Part shown: in pieces, positions 4,195-19,000 of the stretch
Layout: each line of letters begins with the position of its first letter
Numbering within the stretch: the stretch's first letter is position 1
IMG/VR virus record: IMGVR_UViG_3300031547_000001
Reading direction: 5' to 3' (one strand)
Length of the DNA stretch: 20,000 bases
Origin: an uncultured virus (IMG/VR IMGVR_UViG_3300031547_000001)
Taxonomy: Duplodnaviria; Heunggongvirae; Uroviricota; Caudoviricetes
Notes under the pieces: model-generated
Told to the model about the DNA's origin: nothing
The model's input: the letters and a program-made list of their open reading frames with translations, nothing else
Databases searched by the model: none
Program-made: the position numbers and the translations under genes

Positions 4195-4466
4195 CGACAC
4201 AAGAAGACCTCGATCAGGCGCACCGGGAACTCGAGAGGGCAATCGAGAACCTGTCGCGCCTGATCGGTGCCGAAGGGGTTATCTCGGAATGGACCGCTGT
4301 GGTGTCCTTCCAGTCCTTCGGCGCTAATCGAGGAGAAGGCACCACACAGATCATCCGCCTGTTCCCTGACGACGTGCCATATCACAGGAGCATGGGGCTC
4401 CTGGATTACGCGCTCACCAGGATGCGCCACAACATCGGAAGGCTCGACAATGACGATGACGATTGA
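4191..4466 (+). CDS. Hypothetical protein
   Basis: GTGA coupling to the upstream gene, 91 aa, and overlaps the terL start. Confidence 0.75.
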   Translation: MTTQEDLDQAHRELERAIENLSRLIGAEGVISEWTAVVSFQSFGANRGEGTTQIIRLFPDDVPYHRSMGLLDYALTRMRHNIGRLDNDDDD

Positions 4467-6036
4467 CGGCTATCTCCAGGAGGTGGCTGATACCTACACC
4501 GATGGCAATCGACAGGCGATGTCCTTCCTGCTGGGGACGGAATCCGGCCGACGCCATCTCACCAAGGATGAGCCGCTCCTGTTCGCCTTGACCTACATGG
4601 CCAACTCCCTCAAGATGCCCGCTCCCATCGCTGAGGCGGAAGGCGCGCAGTCTGAGGAGGGCGTCATCTCGATGTGTGAGTTCCACTGGGAGCTCTGCGA
4701 GAAGGCGCGTGACTGGAGCGAGAAGCCTGCCAGCCAGTACGGACCGGCCGAAGCGCGCGACGCCTACATCGCTCCGCGTGACGCGGGCAAGTCCACCTGG
4801 CTGTTCAAGATTCTGCCCCTTTGGGCGGCTGCACACGGACACGCCAAGTTCATTGCGGCCTTCGCCGACTCGGGGCCCCAGGCCAAGAAGCACCTGTCCT
4901 CCTTCAAGCGCGAACTGGAGACCAACGCACTTCTGCAGGCAGACTATCCCTTGCTGTGCCAGCCCATGAAGAGGCGCGGCAACGTCACGGTGTCCGACAC
5001 CCAGGAGATGTACCAGGCGCAGAGCGGCTTCGTGTTCGCCGCAACTGGAGCGGACACCTCAGTCCTGGGTATGAAGGTCGAGGACCAGCGACCCGACCTC
5101 ATCATCCTCGACGACCTGGAGCCCGACGAGTCCAGCTACTCCGCGTACCAGGCAGGCCAGCGACTCAACACCCTGACGGACGCCATCCTGCCCCTGAACA
5201 TCCGGGCGCGAGTTGTCCTGTCTGGAACCGTCACCATGCCCGGCTCGATCACGCACCAGCTCGTCAAGACCGTCCTGAACAAGGACGAGGAACCGGCCGA
5301 GTGGATCGTCACCGAGAAGTTCAAGGTGCACCACTTCAAGCCGATCCTCCAGAACGAGGACGGCACTGAGCGCAGCATGTGGCCGGAGAAGTGGCCCATG
5401 TCCTGGCTGGAGACCGTGCGCCACACCCGATCGTTCGCCAAGAACTACAACAACGACCCCATGGCGATGGACGGCCAGTACTGGACGCGCGACGACTTCA
5501 CATACGGCTCGCTGCCTTGCGCCAAGACCGTGCTGTCCATAGATGGCGCCGTGACCAACAAGGGCGGTAGCGACTTCACTGCGCTGGCCGTCGTTGGCGC
5601 CACGGGACACCCTGCTGGACATCCCGATCGTAAGTGCGAGGTCAAGTACGGCGTGGCCGTCAAGCTGTTGGGCGCAGCGCTGCGGAAGAAGGTCCTGGAC
5701 ATTCTCGAGATGTACCCCGAGATCAGCCTGATCCTGATCGAGGGAAACCAGGGCGGAGAGCTCTGGCGAGAAGTCCTGCATAACATGCCTGTGCGCATTT
5801 CCATATTCAGCAATTCGGAACCCAAGGAGGTTCGGGCCGGTCGAGTGCACGCGCTCTATCAGCGCATCCCGACGCGGGTCGTTCACACCGCCCGGCTTCA
5901 GGCCGTCGAGGAGAACATGGTGGGCTTCCCCAAGCTCAAGCACGACGACCTCGTGGACGCCGTGGGCAATCCCATCCTGAAGTTCCTCAAGCCGAAGCAA
6001 GCGCAAAGGCGGAGCGCTCGATCAGTGGGATACTGA
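4450..6036 (+). CDS. terL: Terminase large subunit
   Basis: Walker A APRDAGKST, Walker B LIILDDLE, and RNase H-like nuclease motifs SIDGAV...SDFTA and HDDLVDA. It precedes the portal gene. ATG 4450 follows GGAAGG. Confidence 0.95.
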   Translation: MTMTIDGYLQEVADTYTDGNRQAMSFLLGTESGRRHLTKDEPLLFALTYMANSLKMPAPIAEAEGAQSEEGVISMCEFHWELCEKARDWSEKPASQYGPAEARDAYIAPRDAGKSTWLFKILPLWAAAHGHAKFIAAFADSGPQAKKHLSSFKRELETNALLQADYPLLCQPMKRRGNVTVSDTQEMYQAQSGFVFAATGADTSVLGMKVEDQRPDLIILDDLEPDESSYSAYQAGQRLNTLTDAILPLNIRARVVLSGTVTMPGSITHQLVKTVLNKDEEPAEWIVTEKFKVHHFKPILQNEDGTERSMWPEKWPMSWLETVRHTRSFAKNYNNDPMAMDGQYWTRDDFTYGSLPCAKTVLSIDGAVTNKGGSDFTALAVVGATGHPAGHPDRKCEVKYGVAVKLLGAALRKKVLDILEMYPEISLILIEGNQGGELWREVLHNMPVRISIFSNSEPKEVRAGRVHALYQRIPTRVVHTARLQAVEENMVGFPKLKHDDLVDAVGNPILKFLKPKQAQRRSARSVGY

Positions 6037-6090
6037 GGGCTAAAGTAGACTGTGCGCGAACGCGCAATTGACCAGCCTCAGGAGTTAGCA

Positions 6091-7653
6091 ATGCCCAATC
6101 TCGCTCTCCTGCGGAAGTCCCTCGTGGAACTGGACAAGGCCAAGCCTGCCTACATCGAGGCTGGTCAGTTCTACGACGGGACGTTCGCAGAGCCGTTCCA
6201 GTCGCTCATGATGCAGCGCATGCTCATCCTGGCGAACCCCAACTACAAGATGGTCCTCAGCGCCGTGCCGGTTGACGCCGTCGTGGAGAAGCTGGAGATC
6301 GTCGACGTTCAGGCGTCAACCCCTGAGGGCACCGAGGTCCTTCAGGACGACATCTGGAAGCCGAACAACCTTCGGCTGGAGCACAAGCCCGCCATCCTCG
6401 CTGCCGAGAAGTACGGCGACGCCTACCTGTTCGTGTGGCCCGAGGACACCGAGTACGAGGTGGTCGAGTCCGACAACGAGGACGTCGCTGCCGAGGAGGC
6501 TGCTGACGAGGTAGAGGTCGAGACCTCCATCTCGATCACGTACCAGTCGCCCTTCAAGGTGCGTGTGTTCTACGACGAGGCCAACCCGCGCAAGAAGACG
6601 CACGCCGTCAAGCGGCTCAAGACCGGCAAGGGCAAGCAGGAGTGCGCCTGGCTGTACTACGCCGACGGCCGCATCGAGAAGTACGAGACTCCCGTCAACA
6701 AGTGCACCATCGACGCGTTCTACTACGTCGAGGACGTCGAGAACGAGATGGACGAGATCCCCTTCGTCCACCTGCGCAACGACTTCCCGTATGGTCGGCC
6801 CCTGCACGAGAAGGCGTACGGCCCGCAGAACGCGCTGACCAAGCTCACGGTCAACCAGCTCAGCGGCTCCGACTTCGACGCGTTCCCGCAGCGCTGGGCT
6901 CTGGCCAAGACCAAGGGCCTGACCGGCGGAGACGACATCGACTGGGATGGCGACGACAGCACCGTGCCGGACAAGGAGGGCAACACCCTGTCGACGCTCA
7001 CCAGCGGACCCGGGCGCATCTGGGACCTGTCGGGCTTCGACTCGGTGGGGCAGTTCTCCACGGGTGACGTCGGCCAGTTCCTGGAGCCGATGGACTACTA
7101 CGTCAAGCTGATGGCTAGCGCCACGGGTACGCCGCTCCACTACTTCACCTCGGACACCTCGGGTGGTGGAACGCCCACGGGCGAGTCGATCCGCCAGCGT
7201 GACGCGCGCCTGAACACCAAGGCGGAGTGGCACCAGAAGACTCTGAGCAACGGCTTCGAGGAAGCCCTGCTCATGGGCATGGATTACCTGGGCTACGAGG
7301 ACGAGTCGGTCAGCATCAAGTGGAAGCCGATCGAGTACGTCACCGAGGAGGAGAAGCTCGCCCTCGTCGAGAAGAAGGTCGCCATCGGCATCCCGCTCGC
7401 CGTGGCCCTGGCTGAGGCCGGGTACGACGAGGACACCGTCCGCCAGTGGACCACCGGACAGCCCAACGAGGACGAGCTCACGGCCCGAATCGCGATGCTG
7501 GCTCAGATGGGTGACGCGCTCCAGAAGATCGGTACCGCCGCCACCCTGGGCATCGACATGACCGACGTCAACGAGATCGTCAAGGCGCTGCTGGGCAAGT
7601 TCCAGGGGCTCAACGACCAGGACGACGCGGAAGAGGAAGAGCAGGAGGCGTAA
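6091..7653 (+). CDS. Portal protein (SPP1 gp6-like)
   Basis: Follows terL, about 520 aa, with motifs KYGDAYLFVWP, IPFVHLRN..PYGRP, AFPQRWA and TGESIR. SD AGGAG at 6080-6084. Confidence 0.92.
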   Translation: MPNLALLRKSLVELDKAKPAYIEAGQFYDGTFAEPFQSLMMQRMLILANPNYKMVLSAVPVDAVVEKLEIVDVQASTPEGTEVLQDDIWKPNNLRLEHKPAILAAEKYGDAYLFVWPEDTEYEVVESDNEDVAAEEAADEVEVETSISITYQSPFKVRVFYDEANPRKKTHAVKRLKTGKGKQECAWLYYADGRIEKYETPVNKCTIDAFYYVEDVENEMDEIPFVHLRNDFPYGRPLHEKAYGPQNALTKLTVNQLSGSDFDAFPQRWALAKTKGLTGGDDIDWDGDDSTVPDKEGNTLSTLTSGPGRIWDLSGFDSVGQFSTGDVGQFLEPMDYYVKLMASATGTPLHYFTSDTSGGGTPTGESIRQRDARLNTKAEWHQKTLSNGFEEALLMGMDYLGYEDESVSIKWKPIEYVTEEEKLALVEKKVAIGIPLAVALAEAGYDEDTVRQWTTGQPNEDELTARIAMLAQMGDALQKIGTAATLGIDMTDVNEIVKALLGKFQGLNDQDDAEEEEQEA

Positions 7654-7656
7654 CAG

Positions 7657-8712
7657 ATGGCCCAGGTCGATCCCGAGGCTCTCATCGAGCTGATTCAGGG
7701 CAAGCAGATCGAGGCGCTCCAGACGATCGAGAACCGGGCGGTCCGCTCTGCTACCCTGGCGGGCTTCACGGAGATCGACGACGCCATCCGCACCGCAACC
7801 CAGAACTGGGTCAAGGCGTTCGGCTCGGCCTCTGCAGAAGGAGAGGCCGGGTCGGCGCTGGCGTCCATGATCCGGGAAGCAGGCGGCTCCGTCACCAAGT
7901 CTCTGGCTGGCGTCCATGGTGGCGCGGTCAAGGCGATGAACGGCGCAATGGAGGAGGCGATGAAGCTCGCCCTCGGCCAAAGCGCTACGCTGGTCGCTCA
8001 GGCCTCGGGAGAGGCCGCCCCTCAGGTTTCCCTTCCCGACCCGCCCGCAGCCGCTAAGGCGGACGCTCAGGCCGCAGGGAAGACCGTCAAGGCGGCTGAG
8101 GCGACGGCCAAGAAGCTGCTGAACCCGACGACGGTGCTCCGACTTGGACTGCGAGGGCTGCTGGCACCACTGGCCACGGCTCGTTCTGCAATCACCGCTA
8201 TCCAGCGAATGATCTCCGTGAACGTCAACAGAGCTGTGGACGAGGCAACCAAGGCGACAGCCAAGGCTCTGCCCAAGGACGACGAGCCCAAGCTCGAAGT
8301 CTGGGTATGCAGCCGAGATGCCTGCGTTCGGTGCACAGCCTATGCTGGAGAGATTATCGCTGAGGGGAAGAACTTCCCCGGCGGCCTGTCGTGGGATCCA
8401 AAGTCCCGTGAAAAGAGCGCTCCTGCTGTGCGCCCTCCTCTCCATCCCAATTGTCGATGCCGGACTGTTCCATGGAAGGCATCGTGGAAGAAGCCGGGGC
8501 AGGTATCCTTGCCCGAGGCCGCACGACGAGAGGCCGAGCGATCGATAGCACGAGGATTCTCGCTGCCTTCCGAAAGCAACGCATCTCGAGTTCGTGCACT
8601 GAAGGAATTGTTGAAGACGAATCCTCAACTGCCTAAGACTGTTCTCGAGTCCGCTCGCAAGGCGGCCGAGAAGGGGACCTTCCCCAAGGGTCGGAGCGTT
8701 CCGACTCCATAA
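7657..8712 (+). CDS. MuF/SPP1 gp7-like head morphogenesis (minor head) protein
   Basis: DACVRC and PPLHPNCRC signatures; located directly after the portal. Confidence 0.85.
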   Translation: MAQVDPEALIELIQGKQIEALQTIENRAVRSATLAGFTEIDDAIRTATQNWVKAFGSASAEGEAGSALASMIREAGGSVTKSLAGVHGGAVKAMNGAMEEAMKLALGQSATLVAQASGEAAPQVSLPDPPAAAKADAQAAGKTVKAAEATAKKLLNPTTVLRLGLRGLLAPLATARSAITAIQRMISVNVNRAVDEATKATAKALPKDDEPKLEVWVCSRDACVRCTAYAGEIIAEGKNFPGGLSWDPKSREKSAPAVRPPLHPNCRCRTVPWKASWKKPGQVSLPEAARREAERSIARGFSLPSESNASRVRALKELLKTNPQLPKTVLESARKAAEKGTFPKGRSVPTP

Positions 8713-8727
8713 CAAGGAGATACGCGT

Positions 8728-9579
8728 ATGTCGAAGAACCTGGTACGCCCCGGCATGGCGCCTGCTCTGTCCGCCCCGTCTCTCCTGGAGGGTGGCGTCG
8801 AGGAACTGGTGACCGGCTGGGCCCACCCGTACTCCGTGTCCGACCCGTTCATGCCCTGGCACGCCGACGGCGGCGAGGCAGAGGACGAGGACGAGGGCGA
8901 GGAGGACGACAAGGGGTCGGAGGAAGACGACACCGAGGACGACGACCTCGAAGACGACGAGGACGCGGGCAAGAGCCCCGAGGAACTCGCCGCCGAGGTC
9001 AAGCGACTCCGTGCCGCCTACCTGAAGAAGCTCCGCCAGGGCAAGAACCGCTCGACCCGCATCCAGGCTCTGGAGGCGGACAAGCAGACCTACGACACCA
9101 AGCTCGCCGAGCTGACCGAGGAGCTCAAGTCTCTCCGGGAGCAGGGCGGTGCATCGGGCGAGGTCGACAAGGCCGCTCAGGATCGCATCAACGACCTGAT
9201 CGCTGCGGCCAAGGAGGAGGGCAAGAACTCCTTCAAGCCGGTGGTCATTCGGATGGCCGCGCGTTCGGAGCTCATGGCTGCGGGCGCTCGTGCCACGGTG
9301 GTGGACCGCCTCGTCAGGATGGTGGACGTTGAGGACGTCGACATCGACGACGAGGACGGGTCCATCGACCTGACTGACCAGGTCCTCCAGCTCAAGAAGG
9401 AACTCCCGGAGCTCTTCGGCCCCGTCCGTGCCCGCACCAAGACCAAGCCCAAGGGCGAGGCCAGCACCTCCGCCAAGGCGAAGGCTGCCGGTGGCGGGGA
9501 CGGCGGGGACGAGGGTGCCCAGGAGGTCGTCAAGACCGCGACCCAGAAGGCAGCCGACCGGCTGCGCGGGATCAAGTAG
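8728..9579 (+). CDS. Capsid scaffolding protein
   Basis: SD AAGGAG. An acidic stretch, a coiled-coil core and an LKKELPELF motif are followed by a G/K/A-rich tail. It lies upstream of the major capsid gene. Confidence 0.85.
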   Translation: MSKNLVRPGMAPALSAPSLLEGGVEELVTGWAHPYSVSDPFMPWHADGGEAEDEDEGEEDDKGSEEDDTEDDDLEDDEDAGKSPEELAAEVKRLRAAYLKKLRQGKNRSTRIQALEADKQTYDTKLAELTEELKSLREQGGASGEVDKAAQDRINDLIAAAKEEGKNSFKPVVIRMAARSELMAAGARATVVDRLVRMVDVEDVDIDDEDGSIDLTDQVLQLKKELPELFGPVRARTKTKPKGEASTSAKAKAAGGGDGGDEGAQEVVKTATQKAADRLRGIK

Positions 9580-9594
9580 CACGAGGAGCAGGAC

Positions 9595-9855
9595 ATGGCG
9601 ATCGGCGCGGCTGAGGCCAAGTTCATCGCTGACCTGAAGGCGCACTGTGCGGCCGGAGCCAAGATCGCTGAGAACTACCTCAAGGCGAGCGACAGCTCCG
9701 ACCGCCCGGCATCCGTCGTCAGCAGGGCGGCCAACATGATCTCCAGTCAGGCATACGAGATAGAAGAACTCGGACGCCTGGAGAAGTATCTCGAAGAAGG
9801 ACCGAACGCCTCCAAGGAGGCAGCGGCTCGCCTTATGGGTGGGTACGACTACTGA
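9595..9855 (+). CDS. Small DUF305-like (ferritin-like half-domain) protein
   Basis: SD GAGGAG. The pattern AEAKFIADLKAHCAAGAKIAENYL...VVSRAANMISSQAYEIEEL resembles one DUF305 repeat. The CDS is well supported; the family call is by eye. Confidence 0.6.
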   Translation: MAIGAAEAKFIADLKAHCAAGAKIAENYLKASDSSDRPASVVSRAANMISSQAYEIEELGRLEKYLEEGPNASKEAAARLMGGYDY

Positions 9856-9985
9856 TATCCCGCAATGGGGTATCATCTCCTTAGCGTCCGGTCGCTTGGC
9901 CGTGCGGAATGGCTCTGGTGGGTACCAGAAATGGGGTCCATCGGGGCCATTTGCATTTGACAATCTACGACAGAAGGAGTGGAGA
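9853..9985 (+). promoter_or_regulatory. Putative capsid-gene promoter with inverted repeat and structured leader
   Basis: ATGGGGTATCAT (9865-9876) resembles ATGGGGTATAGT (2037-2048). An 8/9 inverted repeat at 9853-9861/9867-9875 overlaps it. Stems lie at 9889-9955 and SD AAGGAG at 9974-9979. Confidence 0.5.
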
Positions 9986-11062
9986 ATGTCGGACATTCTC
10001 AACGCCCTCCAGGCCAAGCAGGCGCTGCGTGACGCCGAGCTGCAGGCCGCGAAGGTGTGGACCGAATTCGAGCCCGGCGACATCGTCGGCTACCGGAAGA
10101 ACGGCCAGCCGATCTTCCACATCGCCGGTGGTGCGGCGGACAACTTCGACGACTGGATCCCGGAGGAGATGGACTCCGCTGTCATCCAGCGGGTCAACCA
10201 GGTCTCCGTCGTCGAGGCCCACGCGCGGCACACCCCGATGGGTACCGCGACCAAGAACGTTCCGCGCTCCAGCGGCATGGCCGTCAAGACCCTCAACAAG
10301 TCCGGCGCCTACGTCTCCTCGGACGACGAGAACGACGACATCCTGCTCACCGCGCGGAAGCACACCGGCCTCCTGACCGTCGCGGAGGAGGACCTGAACG
10401 ACTCCGCCGCCGACATCATCGAGACCAAGAAGGTCGACTGGGCGACTTCCTACGCGAAGTACTTCGACAACGCCTGCGTCGCCACCTCCGGCGCCGAGTC
10501 CTCGCCGACCGTCCCCTACACCTCTGTGTACCGGACGCTCACGCAGACCGACGCGCCGCTGGGCTACACCGCCAACCAGAACATCAACGGCTCCGTGGTC
10601 GCCGGTCAGGTCTCGTACGACGAGCTGTCCGACACCTTCGGCGTCTACGAGGACGGCGACTACTTCGACGAGTCGATGACCATCGTCCTCGCTCACCCGA
10701 CGTTCCGCAAGCAGCTCCGCAACGTCAAGGACGACCAGGGCATGCCCATCTTCGTCCGTGGCCAGGGCGGCGACCGTGGGACGCCGGACACCCTGTTCGA
10801 CGCGCCGATCTACTGGAGCAACGGCCTCCGCGTGTCCGCCACGGCGACCGCGACCCCTGCCGGTGCCCCGCTCCTGGTGGTCTGCAACCGGGAGTACCTG
10901 GTCGTCGGTGACCGTTCGCCGGTCGAGACCCAGCCGATCCCGGCCGCGATCTCCACGACCGACGAGGCCAACATCAAGACCCGAGTCCGCAAGGGCTTCG
11001 CGGTCGGCCACCCGCGTGCGTTCGCGATCCTCATCGACGACGGCTCCGGCCTGAACTCGTAA
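9986..11062 (+). CDS. Major capsid protein (HK97 fold)
   Basis: Position, 358 aa and very strong codon bias. Motifs WIPEE, VAEEDLNDS, LRNVKDDQGMPIF, TLFDAPIYWS and RVRKGFAVGHPRAF. ATG 9986 has SD AAGGAG. Confidence 0.95.
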   Translation: MSDILNALQAKQALRDAELQAAKVWTEFEPGDIVGYRKNGQPIFHIAGGAADNFDDWIPEEMDSAVIQRVNQVSVVEAHARHTPMGTATKNVPRSSGMAVKTLNKSGAYVSSDDENDDILLTARKHTGLLTVAEEDLNDSAADIIETKKVDWATSYAKYFDNACVATSGAESSPTVPYTSVYRTLTQTDAPLGYTANQNINGSVVAGQVSYDELSDTFGVYEDGDYFDESMTIVLAHPTFRKQLRNVKDDQGMPIFVRGQGGDRGTPDTLFDAPIYWSNGLRVSATATATPAGAPLLVVCNREYLVVGDRSPVETQPIPAAISTTDEANIKTRVRKGFAVGHPRAFAILIDDGSGLNS

Positions 11063-14301: not shown

Positions 14302-16024
14302 GATCGATGCCGACCTCGGCGCCACGTCCCAGACAATCAACAGCGCGGCCGACAGCCTGGACGACCTGGGCGACGCGGCCAATGCTGCGGGCTCCGACCT
14401 TGACGCGGCGGGGCAGGATGCCCAGGACAGCGGCCGTGGAATGCAGGCGATGGGCGTCGCCGCGCTGGGTGCAGGAGCCGCGATGGCTGACCTCGGTCAG
14501 ACCGTCCAGGCGGCCTCCGACCTGTACAACATCGCCGACCGCCGGGCAGCCGCCCTGGCACAGGCACAGCTCGATGTTGAGCAGTCCTCGCAGGACATGG
14601 AGCAGGCTCAGCGTGATGCGAGCCAGGCGACCATCGACCTGAAGCAGGCGAACGTCGACCTCAAGCAGGCGACGCTGGATGTCAACCAGGCCCAGAAGGA
14701 CGGAGTCCAGGCGGGCATCGACGTCGAGCAGGCGGCCATCGACAAGAGGGCCGCGCAGGAGGACTACAACGACGCGGTCAAGGAGTTCGGCCCGGCCTCG
14801 GTTGAGGCGGCTCAGGCCGCGCTCGACATGAAGCAGGCGGACGCCGACGCGGCTCAGGCCAAGCAGGACATGGAGCAGGCAACCCTCGACGGCGAGCAGG
14901 CTCTCACCGACGGCCTGAACGCGCAGGAGGCCAGCAAGCAGGCCGTCATGGACGGCAAGCAGGCGACTCTCGATGCCAAGCAGGCACAGCTGGATCTCAA
15001 CGAGGCTCAGCGAGCGGCATCGGCTGCAGAGCTCAACAGCTCATGGATCGGCATCGCGTCGTCTCTGACCTCCACGCTCTTCGGCCTCGTCGGCATGTTC
15101 TCCATCCTCGGCACGGCCTGGATCGGCACTGCCGCTACTGCCGTCGCCACGGCTGCGACCACCGCCACGGCCTGGGTAGGCTCGATGCTGACGATGGCGG
15201 CAACGGCCGTAACCACCGCTGTAACGACCGCAACGGCATGGGTGAGTGCCTGGGTCACGATGGGCGTGCAAGCGCTCGCTAACGCGGCCAGGGTGGCCCT
15301 CGCATGGATCATCGCGATGGGTCCGATCATCCTGATCATCGCGGCCGTCGTCGCACTGGTGGCCCTGATCATCTACAACTGGGACACCATCTGGGCCTAC
15401 ACCAAGAAGATCTGGGGATACGTCTGGGAGTTCCTCAAGGGGCTCTGGGACATGATCGTCAAGGTCTTCGTCGGTGCATTCGATCTGATCAAGTACCTGT
15501 TCTTCAACTTCAACCCGCTGGGCATCATCATCAAGAACTGGGGTCCGATCACGGACTTCATCAGTCAGCAGTGGGACAACATCGTGCGCAAGGTCTCGGG
15601 TGCCGTCTCCAGCATCAAGGGATTCTTCCACGGCATGTGGGACGGCGTTGTGGCGGGCCTCAAGTGGGCGCTCAACAACATCATCTCCACGCTCAACAAT
15701 GGCATCTACGGAGTCAACCGGCTCATCGGTGGTGCTAACCGAATCCCTGGCGTCAACATTCCGTTCATTCCCTACATCCCCTTCCTCGCAGAGGGCGGCG
15801 TCACGACCGGGCCGACAATGGCCATGATCGGTGAAGGCCGTGAGCAGGAAGCCGTCCTTCCGCTGAGCAAGCTCCAGGGTATGCTTGACATGGCGGGAAG
15901 CGGCGGCGGACAGGCCGGACTCGTGTTCGAGTTCCGAGGTGGAAGCCGTGCCTTCCGGGAGTTCTTCCAGGAGTCCGTCCGCACCACCGCCGGTGGAAGT
16001 GTAGTCAAGTTCGCGGAGGGATAA
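14282..16024 (+). CDS. Tape measure protein (short, about 580 aa)
   Basis: TTG 14282 with SD GGAGGTG at 14269-14275. Contains Ala/Gln heptads, Trp-periodic and hydrophobic segments, and C-terminal LAEGG...AMIGEGREQEAVLPL. Confidence 0.9.
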   Translation: MSDVVIEIDADLGATSQTINSAADSLDDLGDAANAAGSDLDAAGQDAQDSGRGMQAMGVAALGAGAAMADLGQTVQAASDLYNIADRRAAALAQAQLDVEQSSQDMEQAQRDASQATIDLKQANVDLKQATLDVNQAQKDGVQAGIDVEQAAIDKRAAQEDYNDAVKEFGPASVEAAQAALDMKQADADAAQAKQDMEQATLDGEQALTDGLNAQEASKQAVMDGKQATLDAKQAQLDLNEAQRAASAAELNSSWIGIASSLTSTLFGLVGMFSILGTAWIGTAATAVATAATTATAWVGSMLTMAATAVTTAVTTATAWVSAWVTMGVQALANAARVALAWIIAMGPIILIIAAVVALVALIIYNWDTIWAYTKKIWGYVWEFLKGLWDMIVKVFVGAFDLIKYLFFNFNPLGIIIKNWGPITDFISQQWDNIVRKVSGAVSSIKGFFHGMWDGVVAGLKWALNNIISTLNNGIYGVNRLIGGANRIPGVNIPFIPYIPFLAEGGVTTGPTMAMIGEGREQEAVLPLSKLQGMLDMAGSGGGQAGLVFEFRGGSRAFREFFQESVRTTAGGSVVKFAEG

Positions 16025-16027
16025 GAG

Positions 16028-19000
16028 ATGCCGAGTCTGCCCCCGGACGTGAAGGGGTATCTGTTCTACGACGGCGTGTGGAACGACGTCAGCAACAAGA
16101 TGCGCCAGACCAGTCCGATCACCATTACCCGTGGCGCCGATAGCGAGCAGGGTGAGAACAGCCCGACCAAGGCTGAGCTCGTTATGGACAACCGTTCGGG
16201 GGCATTCAGCCCGCGCAATCCGGAGAGCCCGCTCTTCGGCAAGATCGGTCGCAACACGCCGATGCGGATCGCCATCGAGGCCGGTCCGCCGTACCTGCTC
16301 ATCCCCTTCCAGAGCCTGTTCAACGACAGCGCTCTGGTTGCGCAGGACTCGGCCCAGATGGACTTCACCGGAGACGTCGATCTCCGCATCGAGCTTTCGT
16401 CCAACGACTTCGCGACGTACGACGTTGGCTCGGCTCTCGGCTTCGCGAGCCGCTGGGAGTTCACCGGCAACAACAGGTGCTGGTGGTGGGGTCGGAGCCA
16501 GCAGGGCAACATGTACTTCGCCTGGACCGAGGACGGCCTGCTCATCGGTACCGGCGGGTCCGTCTCCTCGACCGCGCCCATCCCGTTCTTCAATGGTGAG
16601 CGCGTCGCCATGCGTGTCACCGTTGACGTCAACAATGGCGCCGGTGGATACACTGTTCGGTTCTACTACTCGAACCAGATCGACGGCGAATGGGTGCAGC
16701 TGGGCGACGACGTCGTCAACACCTCTGCCGGTGCAACCTTCATCTTCAACGGCAACGGCGACGCCGACATCTGGATCGGCGACGCTGCAGAGTCCATGCC
16801 TGCAACCGGCGGATCCGTCGACATGATCGATGGCAAGCTGTACGCCTTCCAGATGCGCCAGGGCATCAACGGTCCGCTCATGATCGACTTCGACGCGGCT
16901 CGTGACGCGGAGGCCGGAGACACGGCGATCGTCGACGGTTCCGGACAGGCCTGGGCCGTCCAGGAGGACGCGACGTTCTCCAACGAGTACGTTCGCATCC
17001 ACGGCGAGGTGCCCTCCTGGCCGCCGGACCGGGACCTGACCGGCAACAACAAGTTCTCCGAGATCCAGCCGACCGGTGTCACTCGTCGCCTTGACGCGGG
17101 TAACAAGCCGCTGGAGTCCGCTCTGCTGCGCTACCTTCGCTCCATCGAGGGGCAGCCGATCGACTGCTGGCCGATGATCGATGGTGTGCAGGCTCAGGGA
17201 GCCGCGTCCCTCAACGGAGGACAGGCGGCGAACTTCTGGGAGCGAGTCGGCACTCTGCAGTTCGCCATCGCGAACGAGAAGTACGAGTGGGCCAGCGGCA
17301 CCATCGCGAGCTGGCTGGAGCCGGTTGGTATCGCTGCCGAAGCCACCGCCGGTTACCTCCTGGCAGAGTGCCGGGAGGACGCCACGGCTGACACCTCCTG
17401 GGCTGTCGATGTCTTCTTCACGGACTGCAACGACAGCATTCCCGAGTTCGAGTACACTGACCGAACCGTGGCCACCGACGTGGACGGGACGGTCACCTGG
17501 CTCCTGTCGCTCAACCGAGACAGTGACGCCCTCGACTTGATCTTCCAGACTCGCACGGAAGGCGCCGGTTCGACCGCTCTTCTCGAGCACATCCTCGCGC
17601 CCGGCATCTTCGACAAGCAGCCGCACTTCATTCGTCTGCAGGTAGACCCGGGTGCAAACAGCGACTACTTCCTCTATGTCGACGGAGTTCTCGTTGCGGC
17701 CGGAACCTATCCCGTTCCGTCTCGGCAGCTCAAGCAGCTCAAGTTCAACTGGTTCCTGGACAGCGAGCCCTTCGTCGGATTCCCGTACGGATTCATCACG
17801 TACTGGGGTCTCAACTATCCGACGGTCGAGTCTGTGTACAATGCATTCCTCGGATTCCCCGGCGACAAGACCGGCACCCGATTCGAGCGACTCATGGACG
17901 AGCAGGGGCTCGTCGCCGGGATCGGAAGCAACGGCGGGTCCAGCGGAGAGCAGCAGTTCCAGGAGGAGATGGGAACGCAGGGGCTGAAGAAGTTCATCGA
18001 CCTTCTCCAGCAGTGCGCGAGCTCCGACATTGGCATCTTCGCCGAGATGCGAGATGACGAGCACCTGTATCTGCGAGCTCGATCCACGCTGTACAATCAG
18101 GCGCCCCGGTTCACGCTGGACTTCTCCGAGGGCGTCATCAGCGCGCCGTTCAAGCCGCTCGACGACGACAAGCTGACCGAGAACGACGTCCAGGTGACGC
18201 GCATCGGCGGATCCAACAGCAAGTCGGTCGACACGACGAGCAACATGTCGATCCAGGATCCTCCGAACGGCGTGGGCCGGTACGACGTCAACAAGGAGTT
18301 GTCGCTGTACCAGGACGCTCAGACGGCCAACCTGGCTGGCTGGTTCCTGCACATGGGCACCTTCGACGGGCTCCGATACACCCGGCTGACCGTCGACCTG
18401 GCGAACCCGCGCGTCTTCGAGATGTTCCCGCAGATCATGAACACAGACCTCGGCGACGTCATCCGGATCACCAACCTGCCGAAGCAGTACGGACCGGACG
18501 ATGTCGACCTGATCGTGCGCGGGTACACAGAGGAGATCGGGCCGGACGCCTGGAAGATCACCTTCAACTGCTCGCCCGGCGAGACCTTCCAGGTCGCCTC
18601 TGCGGTCCTCGATATCCACGAGGACTTCGAGGACGCCATCCTCAATGTCGACTTCACGAACGCTGGCTCCGCCTCCTGGGCTCGCAGCACCAACTTCGCC
18701 CACACCGGAATCAACTCCTACAAGTCCGGCGCCATCGCGGCTAGCCAGACGTCTGACTGGGTCGTCACCGTTCCCAAGGGTTCGGAGAAGGTCGAGTTCT
18801 GGTACAAGACGGACTCGTCCTCGGCCGGGACCGGCGACCGTCTGATCGTGCTCGTGAACGCGGCCACGGTCCTCACGACCTCTGGCATCGGCGAGTGGAC
18901 GGTGTTCTCGGCTGATGTGTCAGCTGCAACCACCGTGACGTTCCGGTACGCCAAGGATGCAGCAACCACCGCAGGGACGGACGCGGTCTACATCGACGGT

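Follow-up and report, generated by a model that had tools for sequence, protein, structure and literature searches.

Phage T4 carries N-terminal capsid-targeting sequences as tags common to the shell and core proteins of its prohead, and it encodes its own protease, gp21, which cleaves gp23 and the core proteins at sites that are short linear motifs. Adenain and pS273R of African swine fever virus are maturation proteases directed by Gly-Gly, and double-glycine leaders are cut by C39 peptidases. The closest described system is that of Staphylococcus phage 80alpha, whose capsid and scaffold proteins share an N-terminal motif that is cut by the host protease Prp (PMC5744158). According to the passages of that paper drawn on here, the motif comprises 13–14 residues with the cut between F and A, and it mimics the N-terminus of the host ribosomal protein L27; the scaffold requires the tag but not its cleavage, a pre-cleaved capsid is viable, and the authors suggest a common chaperone (PMC5744158). 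Here we analysed a stretch of 20,000 nucleotides from an uncultured virus (IMG/VR IMGVR_UViG_3300031547_000001), referred to as the window, which is the left arm of a Streptomyces siphophage. The original prediction for this DNA was that its scaffolding protein and major capsid protein share an N-terminal leader ending in Gly-Gly at residue 49, which would act as a maturation signal analogous to that of 80alpha. As shown below, the capsid leader contains a hairpin of 23 residues ending in Gly-Gly, the hairpin-GG module, which sequence comparisons identify as a portable N-terminal element of head-assembly proteins in actinomycete phages. A literature search that did not extend to subscription journals and supplements returned no description of this module.

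How does this locus compare with the known systems? Like the 80alpha motif in the passages cited, the module is a short N-terminal element that occurs on the scaffold, on the capsid or on both, and the proteins that carry it in related phages can be non-homologous. The two head modules also have the same order of portal, MuF-like protein, scaffold and capsid genes and lack a phage protease, and the viable pre-cleaved 80alpha capsid is paralleled here by natural relatives that lack the leader. Unlike the 80alpha motif, the element in the window is a hairpin of roughly 23 residues that ends in GG[A/S], and the scaffold of the window phage lacks the capsid motif in searches with a hidden Markov model (HMM), hhalign and jackhmmer; scaffold and capsid carrying it together were found in loci L044/L045, L115 and L118. 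Another difference from 80alpha and Prp is that neither a host look-alike nor Prp was found in five actinomycete genomes. Thus, the module would work most like the 80alpha/Prp tag, yet it fails the defining features of that system, and cleavage is putative here. Like the delta domain of HK97, the leader is an extension N-terminal to the whole HK97 fold that faces the procapsid interior, and in locus L132 a true delta region carries the module at its tip and is encoded next to an S78 gene, as in the HK97 type. However, the delta domain is about 100 amino acids long and helical, whereas the leader has 49 amino acids with one helix and a hairpin, and unlike in HK97/S78 maturation there is a separate scaffolding protein and no protease gene in the head module of the window or in the relative Lizz. 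As in T4, an N-terminal tag is found on proteins of the prohead shell and core. The end of the leader resembles the substrates of Gly-Gly proteases and the C39 leaders in that a hydrophobic-x-Gly-Gly followed by a small residue ends a removable N-terminal piece. This likeness is a lead only. In the 62 unannotated proteins of Lizz, Pfam found no CE-clan or C39 peptidase family.

The capsid leader is a separate N-terminal add-on

The major capsid protein gene (9986..11062, + strand) encodes a protein of 358 amino acids with the HK97 fold, which matches PF05065 over residues 58–349 (E 3.7e-19) and TIGR01554 over residues 57–349, on profile positions 115–383 (E 4e-19). An AlphaFold2 model of this protein, built with a 56-row alignment, had a predicted local distance difference test score (pLDDT) of 82.7. 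VIA-align superposed residues 57–354 on HK97-fold capsids with Z 16–19, where residues 119–383 of HK97 prohead II aligned with residues 58–353 of the window capsid and residue 1 of the encapsulins with residue 57. As the HK97 fold starts at residue 57, the leader (residues 1–49; 9986..10132, + strand) is N-terminal to the whole fold, in the place of the delta domain. It is modelled as a helix (residues 2–21), a linker and a hairpin with strands at residues 33–36 and 42–44 (pLDDT about 62–78), and pLDDT drops below 50 at residues 23–27 and 48–60. The Gly48-Gly49-Ala50 junction that connects the leader to the N-arm (10127..10135, + strand) is thus predicted to be a flexible tether. In the TIGR01554 alignment, A50 lies within a few residues of what we take to be the HK97 maturation site. 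The hairpin-GG module itself spans residues 28–50 (FEPGDIVGYRKNGQPIFHIAGGA; 10067..10135, + strand).

The boundary of the leader is sharp in related phages. It ends in GG directly before AADNFDDWIPEE in the capsids of all seven closest scaffold/capsid pairs and in 16 of 16 IMG/VR capsids that were picked up by sequence pattern. Relatives from which the leader is missing start MA followed by RNTFEDWIPEE or ADNFDDWIPEE, with the Met on the position of G49, and more distant leaderless capsids start M/V-A-R-N-T-F-E-D-W-I-P-E-E (Zuko, KimJongPhill, OscarSo and Wyvern). A stop codon is found a few codons 5' of the start in the leaderless relatives; in KimJongPhill it is only two codons upstream, which means that these proteins truly lack a leader. 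The N-termini of 120 database homologues formed three groups, with a long leader (helix and hairpin), a short leader (hairpin only, in several flavours) or none; three proteins of the last kind are about 70% identical and begin with MA followed by ADNFDDWIPEE. A set of 118 distinct capsid cores comprises 68 without a leader and 50 with one, which is short in 28 and long in 22. On a quick maximum likelihood tree of these cores the leaderless state requires at least five changes, four of them forced by well-supported branches, and the leaderless lineages all start within 0–2 residues of one point. Where present, the leader is conserved at the protein level in capsids down to about 50% identity. 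Residues 1–49 of the capsid are a separate N-terminal add-on that consists of a helix (2–21), the 23-residue hairpin (28–50) and a flexible GGA junction.

Leaderless relatives of the window capsid also occur, at 31–40% identity, in the Streptomyces satellite phages Mulchroom (L010) and MiniFlayer (L012), whose scaffolds are short and have neither the hairpin-GG module nor the N-terminal domain of the window scaffold that is described below. In a distant relative (L030/L080, 1224–3099), three open reading frames (ORFs) lie between the scaffold and capsid genes, and the capsid and scaffold leaders both end ..I-[SC]-G-A-D-P.

The hairpin-GG module is portable between scaffolds and capsids

The core of the capsid leaders has the consensus PGD-I-I-G-Y-R-K-x-G-x-P-I-x-x-x-A-G-G-A. 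We defined the module as one copy, within the first ~60 residues, of G-[YFH]-x-x-x-G-x-P-[IV]-x3-4-G-G-[AS], followed by a flexible segment. This describes the window capsid, which matches an HMM of 42 capsid leaders with E 3.4e-15 and has pLDDT below 50 at the junction, and it does not describe the window scaffold. The HMM, which was made from these 42 capsid leaders only, was searched against the six-frame ORFs of at least 60 amino acids in the window and 114 loci (1.67 million residues). At E<1e-3 it found 31 capsid ORFs and also 46 scaffold ORFs (scaffolds E 6e-9 to 3.6e-4), and the remaining kinds of ORF in this collection all stayed at E 3.7 or above. In all 46 scaffolds the match is N-terminal and directly precedes a polyacidic run, as exemplified by ..PPGTILGYRADGRPIHVIAGGA followed by ETDDEPD, and the capsid of the same locus is leaderless. 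The scaffolds in these loci start MGIHP.. and are preceded by a ribosome-binding site.

The 105 locus records that contain both genes, a few of which are duplicates of one phage, reveal how the module is distributed. A module-bearing scaffold with a capsid that has none is the most frequent state (46 records), followed by the module on neither protein (27). The capsid module is combined with a scaffold of the GWxHPY type, as in the window, in 24 records and with another scaffold in four. Two records have the module on both proteins (L044/L045), and the remaining two have a GWxHPY scaffold with a capsid that has none (L041 and L114). Two further cases with the module on both proteins were found in an Actinomadura prophage (L118) and in a prophage on a contig of a metagenome-assembled genome (L115). 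In L044, L115 and L118 the scaffold copy is degenerate where the capsid copy is canonical, and elsewhere the scaffold copy is replaced by another domain. This pattern is what would be expected from redundancy: two copies in one phage are redundant, and some lineages do without the module altogether. The kinship of the copies is also seen in the reverse direction, as jackhmmer searches seeded with the scaffold modules of other phages recovered the capsid module of the window at E 8e-11 to 1e-17. The window capsid module is the first row of the module alignments.

To place the module in a wider context, a 30-position profile was compared with 1.84 billion representative proteins, which gave 207 protein clusters at E≤1e-3, of which 149 were fetched and inspected. 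In 122 of these a single copy of the module lies close to the N-terminus, with a median start at residue 9, and the median length of the proteins is 240 amino acids. The junction in these 122 proteins is GG in 111, GA in ten and GS in one, and the residue that follows it is S in 58, A in 42, D in 12 and another residue in ten. The sampled members include scaffolds of PF06810 and of PHROGs 8952 (the family of the window scaffold), 15186, 22063 and 16044, and also the unnamed phrog_33339. The linkers that follow the module in scaffolds are acidic, Pro/Ala-rich or Gly/Gln-rich. Sampled module capsids belong to phrog_10, to phrog_1357 (with a weak match to the N4-gp56 family) and to phrog_2263 (586 amino acids, with a delta region). 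L132 encodes a capsid of 449 amino acids in which the module (residues 23–42) is followed by a coiled-coil delta region of roughly 150 amino acids, and its gene adjoins a Peptidase_S78 gene. Among named phages, a 38-residue module query matched the capsids of the window's group, SV1 gp6 and Micromonospora phage pMLP1. In SV1 gp6, which is annotated as hypothetical but is scaffold-like, the module occupies residues 14–33. A tblastn search of named phages with the module scaffold P0192 gave no match, and with P0180 it gave six records in which only the module-less part was matched. The module itself falls outside the curated models of Pfam, PHROGs and NCBIfam.

The other 27 fetched proteins are large and apparently not of phage origin, and they contain 3–12 internal copies of a hairpin repeat, x-I-G-Y-x-x-D-G-x-P-I-Y, that resembles the core of the module and is covered by no Pfam family. 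P0123–P0130, P0145 and P0166 are among these 27 proteins, which include a TrbI-domain protein and SPOR and peptidoglycan-binding proteins.

Summarizing the placements, the module is on the capsid in the lineage of the window and on the scaffold in sister lineages, and elsewhere it is on both, on neither or before a delta domain. Its carriers, whether scaffold, capsid or delta domain, all face the interior of the procapsid.

A possible role in head assembly

Our favoured reading, to which we give a probability of roughly 55%, is that the module is a portable, flexibly tethered assembly tag, and that the motif on the window scaffold is a different N-terminal domain. During assembly the module would serve as a tethered hook on the inner side of the procapsid and bind a conserved partner, which could be a host factor, the portal or the module itself, and the hook would not be needed after assembly. 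The reason to think of a conserved partner is that about 20 residues are nearly fixed while the proteins that carry them have diverged beyond recognition, which points away from a fast-co-evolving phage partner. A complex prediction from alignments of the leaderless L105 capsid and of residues 1–45 of the L105 scaffold, which bears the module, scored 0.00, was run without controls and speaks neither for nor against binding.

Several observations weigh against the tag as we describe it. The 27 of 105 locus records with the module on neither protein mean that it is not essential to this assembly pathway. The tree that supports repeated changes of the leaderless state came from a quick maximum likelihood search. 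The 27 proteins with multiple internal copies show that the pattern is in part that of a generic hairpin repeat, so that the weakest single matches may be look-alikes rather than relatives. Finally, a cleavage site would also be suited by the Ser or Ala that comes after the Gly-Gly in 100 of 122 proteins, by the exact replacement of G49 by Met at the start of the leaderless forms and by the position of the junction near the presumed HK97 maturation site (from the TIGR01554 mapping).

The alternative that survives best is that the leader is a cleavage signal, cut after Gly-Gly and before Ala or Ser by a host or phage protease, so that the mature capsid would start at A50 and the scaffold copies would be cut likewise. 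We consider this a tentative but real possibility. It overlaps with an assembly tag, as the 80alpha case illustrates, in which a tag has a part in assembly and is also cut; clipping of the tag at GG|A is likewise possible, with a probability somewhat below even. In favour of cleavage, the leaderless relatives start at G49-A50 in lineages that are separated by at least four to five state changes, 111 of 122 module proteins retain Gly-Gly, the residue after it is S or A in 100 of the 122, flexibility is predicted for the junction and the leader is located where delta domains sit. There is also the precedent of 80alpha, in which the host protease Prp makes the cut and the head module likewise has no phage protease in the passages cited (PMC5744158). 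Against it, the most conserved residues lie 8–20 positions upstream of the junction, which suits a folded unit better than a linear site, and in L132, a phage with an S78 protease, the whole delta region would be degraded anyway.

A further argument against cleavage is that we found no candidate protease. As originally noted, the head module contains no recognisable prohead protease gene: searches of the window head genes with Pfam, PHROGs and NCBIfam yielded no peptidase family. The complete relative Lizz has 103 genes, none of which is annotated as a protease; 41 carry functional names, and Pfam found no peptidase family in the 62 unannotated proteins. In the sister locus L042 the five head genes are the same and leave no space for a protease gene. 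The MuF-like minor head protein (351 amino acids; 7657..8712, + strand; phrog_241 head morphogenesis, E 1.7e-17) was modelled by AlphaFold2 with pLDDT 93.2 as a helical bundle (residues 6–204) and a small alpha/beta domain. Foldseek found no matches to this model in the PDB at E≤0.001, with helical bundles in the top rows, and the Lizz orthologue matches PF04233 weakly. The predicted structure gives no sign of a protease-like fold. The passages of the phiJoe paper drawn on here report liquid chromatography–tandem mass spectrometry of virions and contain nothing on processing. Autoproteolysis by a Ser nucleophile after Gly-Gly was rejected, as the residue is Ala here and in 42 of 122 module proteins.

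The host side was searched in five actinomycete genomes, which are carriers of related prophages and not the host of the window phage itself. The significant matches to the module HMM in these genomes were limited to prophage scaffold and capsid genes (E≤2.6e-8) and the prophage capsid of L132 (E 0.003). All remaining matches had E>0.3, and the search of host proteomes proposed with the original prediction thus brought up no host protein that carries the module. Prp (PF04327) was found in none of the five genomes, whereas the controls Bacillus subtilis, Thermotoga maritima and Lactococcus lactis were positive.

A more speculative proposal is that the hairpin-GG[A/S] module is the actinomycete-phage counterpart of the Firmicute Prp/L27 tag, that is, a portable N-terminal address with which scaffold, capsid or delta domain would engage one conserved host factor, either a protease that cuts after Gly-Gly or a chaperone. 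A shared host factor would explain the ~20 near-fixed residues on diverging carriers. We regard this proposal as rather unlikely.

The window scaffold carries a different N-terminal domain

The scaffolding protein gene (8728..9579, + strand) encodes 283 amino acids that match PF06810 (Phage_scaffold) over residues 106–245 (E 2.7e-14; 54 bits, above the curated cut-off of 35) and phrog_8952 over residues 27–282 (E 1.1e-44). Its N-terminal domain, residues 1–49 (..GWAHPY..PFMPWHADGG; 8728..8874, + strand), is conserved in 16 distinct sequences as GWxHPY..[WF][HY]A[DS]G and is followed by a polyacidic linker that is seen in the translation (residues 50–80; 8875..8967, + strand). The original prediction had read residues 40–49 of the scaffold as PFMPWHADGG and those of the capsid as GQPIFHIAGG, with an acidic linker directly after residue 49 of the scaffold, and both the letters and the coordinates are correct. 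It had taken the two stretches for one signal, defined by an aromatic residue, His45 and Gly48-Gly49 at the same position.

That scaffold ..PWHADGG and capsid ..IFHIAGG are two copies of one signal, recognised by one reading factor, is improbable. The letters do agree at the same residue number, but the match consists of three identities and one aromatic pair in six residues. At zero offset its score was reached by 4.7% of 20,000 shuffles over the whole length and by 0.76% within the first 60 residues, whereas at any offset it was reached by 36% of 3,000 shuffles. As such a match is commonplace at any offset, only the equal residue number looks unusual, and this number is not kept: the scaffold leaders of relatives end at residues ranging from 42 to 53, for example at 42 in Yara and at 53 in phiRKBJ001, while their capsid leaders end at 49 (counted by hand). 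The motif is not co-conserved in related pairs either. In the seven closest pairs, the residue aligned to His45 is His in two capsids (F or L in the others) and in three scaffolds (otherwise Y). Gly-Gly is kept in all seven capsids and in six of the seven scaffolds, the exception being Dryad with SGD, and five of 16 further IMG/VR scaffolds end ASG then D instead of DGG.

Profile comparisons gave a similar picture. The capsid-leader HMM matched no scaffold of the GWxHPY type at E<10, and hhalign gave a probability of 0.2 for the scaffold N-terminal domain against the capsid module, from two small alignments. Each of the jackhmmer searches with the degenerate modules on the L115, L044 and L118 scaffolds as seeds found 90–95 module proteins and no GWxHPY scaffolds. 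Profiles this short have little power for remote relationships. The GWxHPY domain also occurs beside leaderless capsids (L041 and L114), which does not suit a pair of matching signals. In favour of two copies, four other phage loci have the module on both proteins (L044/L045, L115 and L118), and by eye the scaffolds of the Yara and Gibson types (SPFWYADGG and SPVFYADGG) resemble the degenerate module of L115 (RPIWQTLGG). Most likely, PFMPWHADGG resembles the capsid motif, down to His45 and position 49, by chance or at best through a relation too remote to detect, and the N-terminal domain of the window scaffold is a conserved element, probably different from the capsid module. Thus, of the N-terminal unit ending in Gly-Gly that had been proposed for both head proteins, the capsid part holds, as residues 1–49 are discrete and the same unit is found on the scaffolds of sister phages, whereas the window scaffold has no detectable relation to it. 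The exact pairing was probably coincidental, yet it pointed to a real and widespread feature.

Finally, it is extremely unlikely that the capsid leader is untranslated because the true start lies downstream or the gene was miscalled: many relatives are annotated from the equivalent of residue 49–50, but in the window both ATG starts have a good ribosome-binding site, AAGGAG 8 nucleotides upstream for the scaffold and a strong GAAGGAG 6 nucleotides upstream for the capsid ATG at 9986, no ATG, GTG or TTG occurs in frame at capsid codons 43–54, and both the protein-level conservation of the leader and the stop codons upstream of the leaderless starts described above argue against it.

Genomic context of the head module

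The nearest record to the window is phage Yara, whose head genes are 82% identical to those of the window at the nucleotide level and whose capsid is 93% identical. The window has the gene order of SPP1 and 80alpha, in which the terminase large subunit (4267..6036, + strand; phrog_38, E 9.9e-67) and the portal protein (6052..7653, + strand; phrog_104, E 1.3e-70; PF05133) precede the MuF-like, scaffold and capsid genes, and head-tail connector and tail genes are found 3' of the capsid gene. The small domain of the MuF-like protein has a Cys/His cluster with invariant Cys223, Cys226, His263, Cys266 and Cys268. Between the scaffold and capsid genes lies an ORF of 86 amino acids (9595..9855, + strand) with no Pfam, PHROG or NCBIfam match, which leaves its family unassigned. 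An equivalent is annotated in Yara alone among the relatives inspected; the other relatives have two or three small genes between the portal and MuF-like genes instead.

The untranslated region 5' of the capsid gene is predicted to form a conserved stem-loop (9908–9951, with outer pairs of 9884–9886 with 9952–9954). RNAalifold predicted 22 pairs from eight relatives, five of them with compensatory double changes, at -28.8 kcal/mol. A conserved GGTATCAT box is located upstream of this stem-loop, at ~9871–9880. An Rfam scan of the window found no family, the stem-loop included. The stem-loop may act in processing or stability, or it may be an attenuator through which the ratio of capsid to scaffold is set. 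Long open frames were also seen on the - strand, opposite the head and tail genes (6316–10083, 1255 amino acids, and 15041–18703, 1220 amino acids). These antisense frames were rejected as genes, as they are expected of high-GC DNA.

Implications for actinomycete phages

Our analysis uncovered a 23-residue element that is kept in at least 207 protein clusters, on several scaffold families and three capsid families, and that swaps between scaffold and capsid. As scaffolding proteins are fast-evolving and offer few features by which to recognise them, the module provides a handle on a step of head assembly without a description in the literature searched. It can also be used in annotation, where it flags scaffolds that are now called hypothetical, such as SV1 gp6, and it supports the long capsid start in the group of the window phage. 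If a host factor reads the module, this would be the second case, after 80alpha and Prp, of phage head proteins that depend on a host processing or folding factor, and the module would be a determinant of host range for Streptomyces phages.

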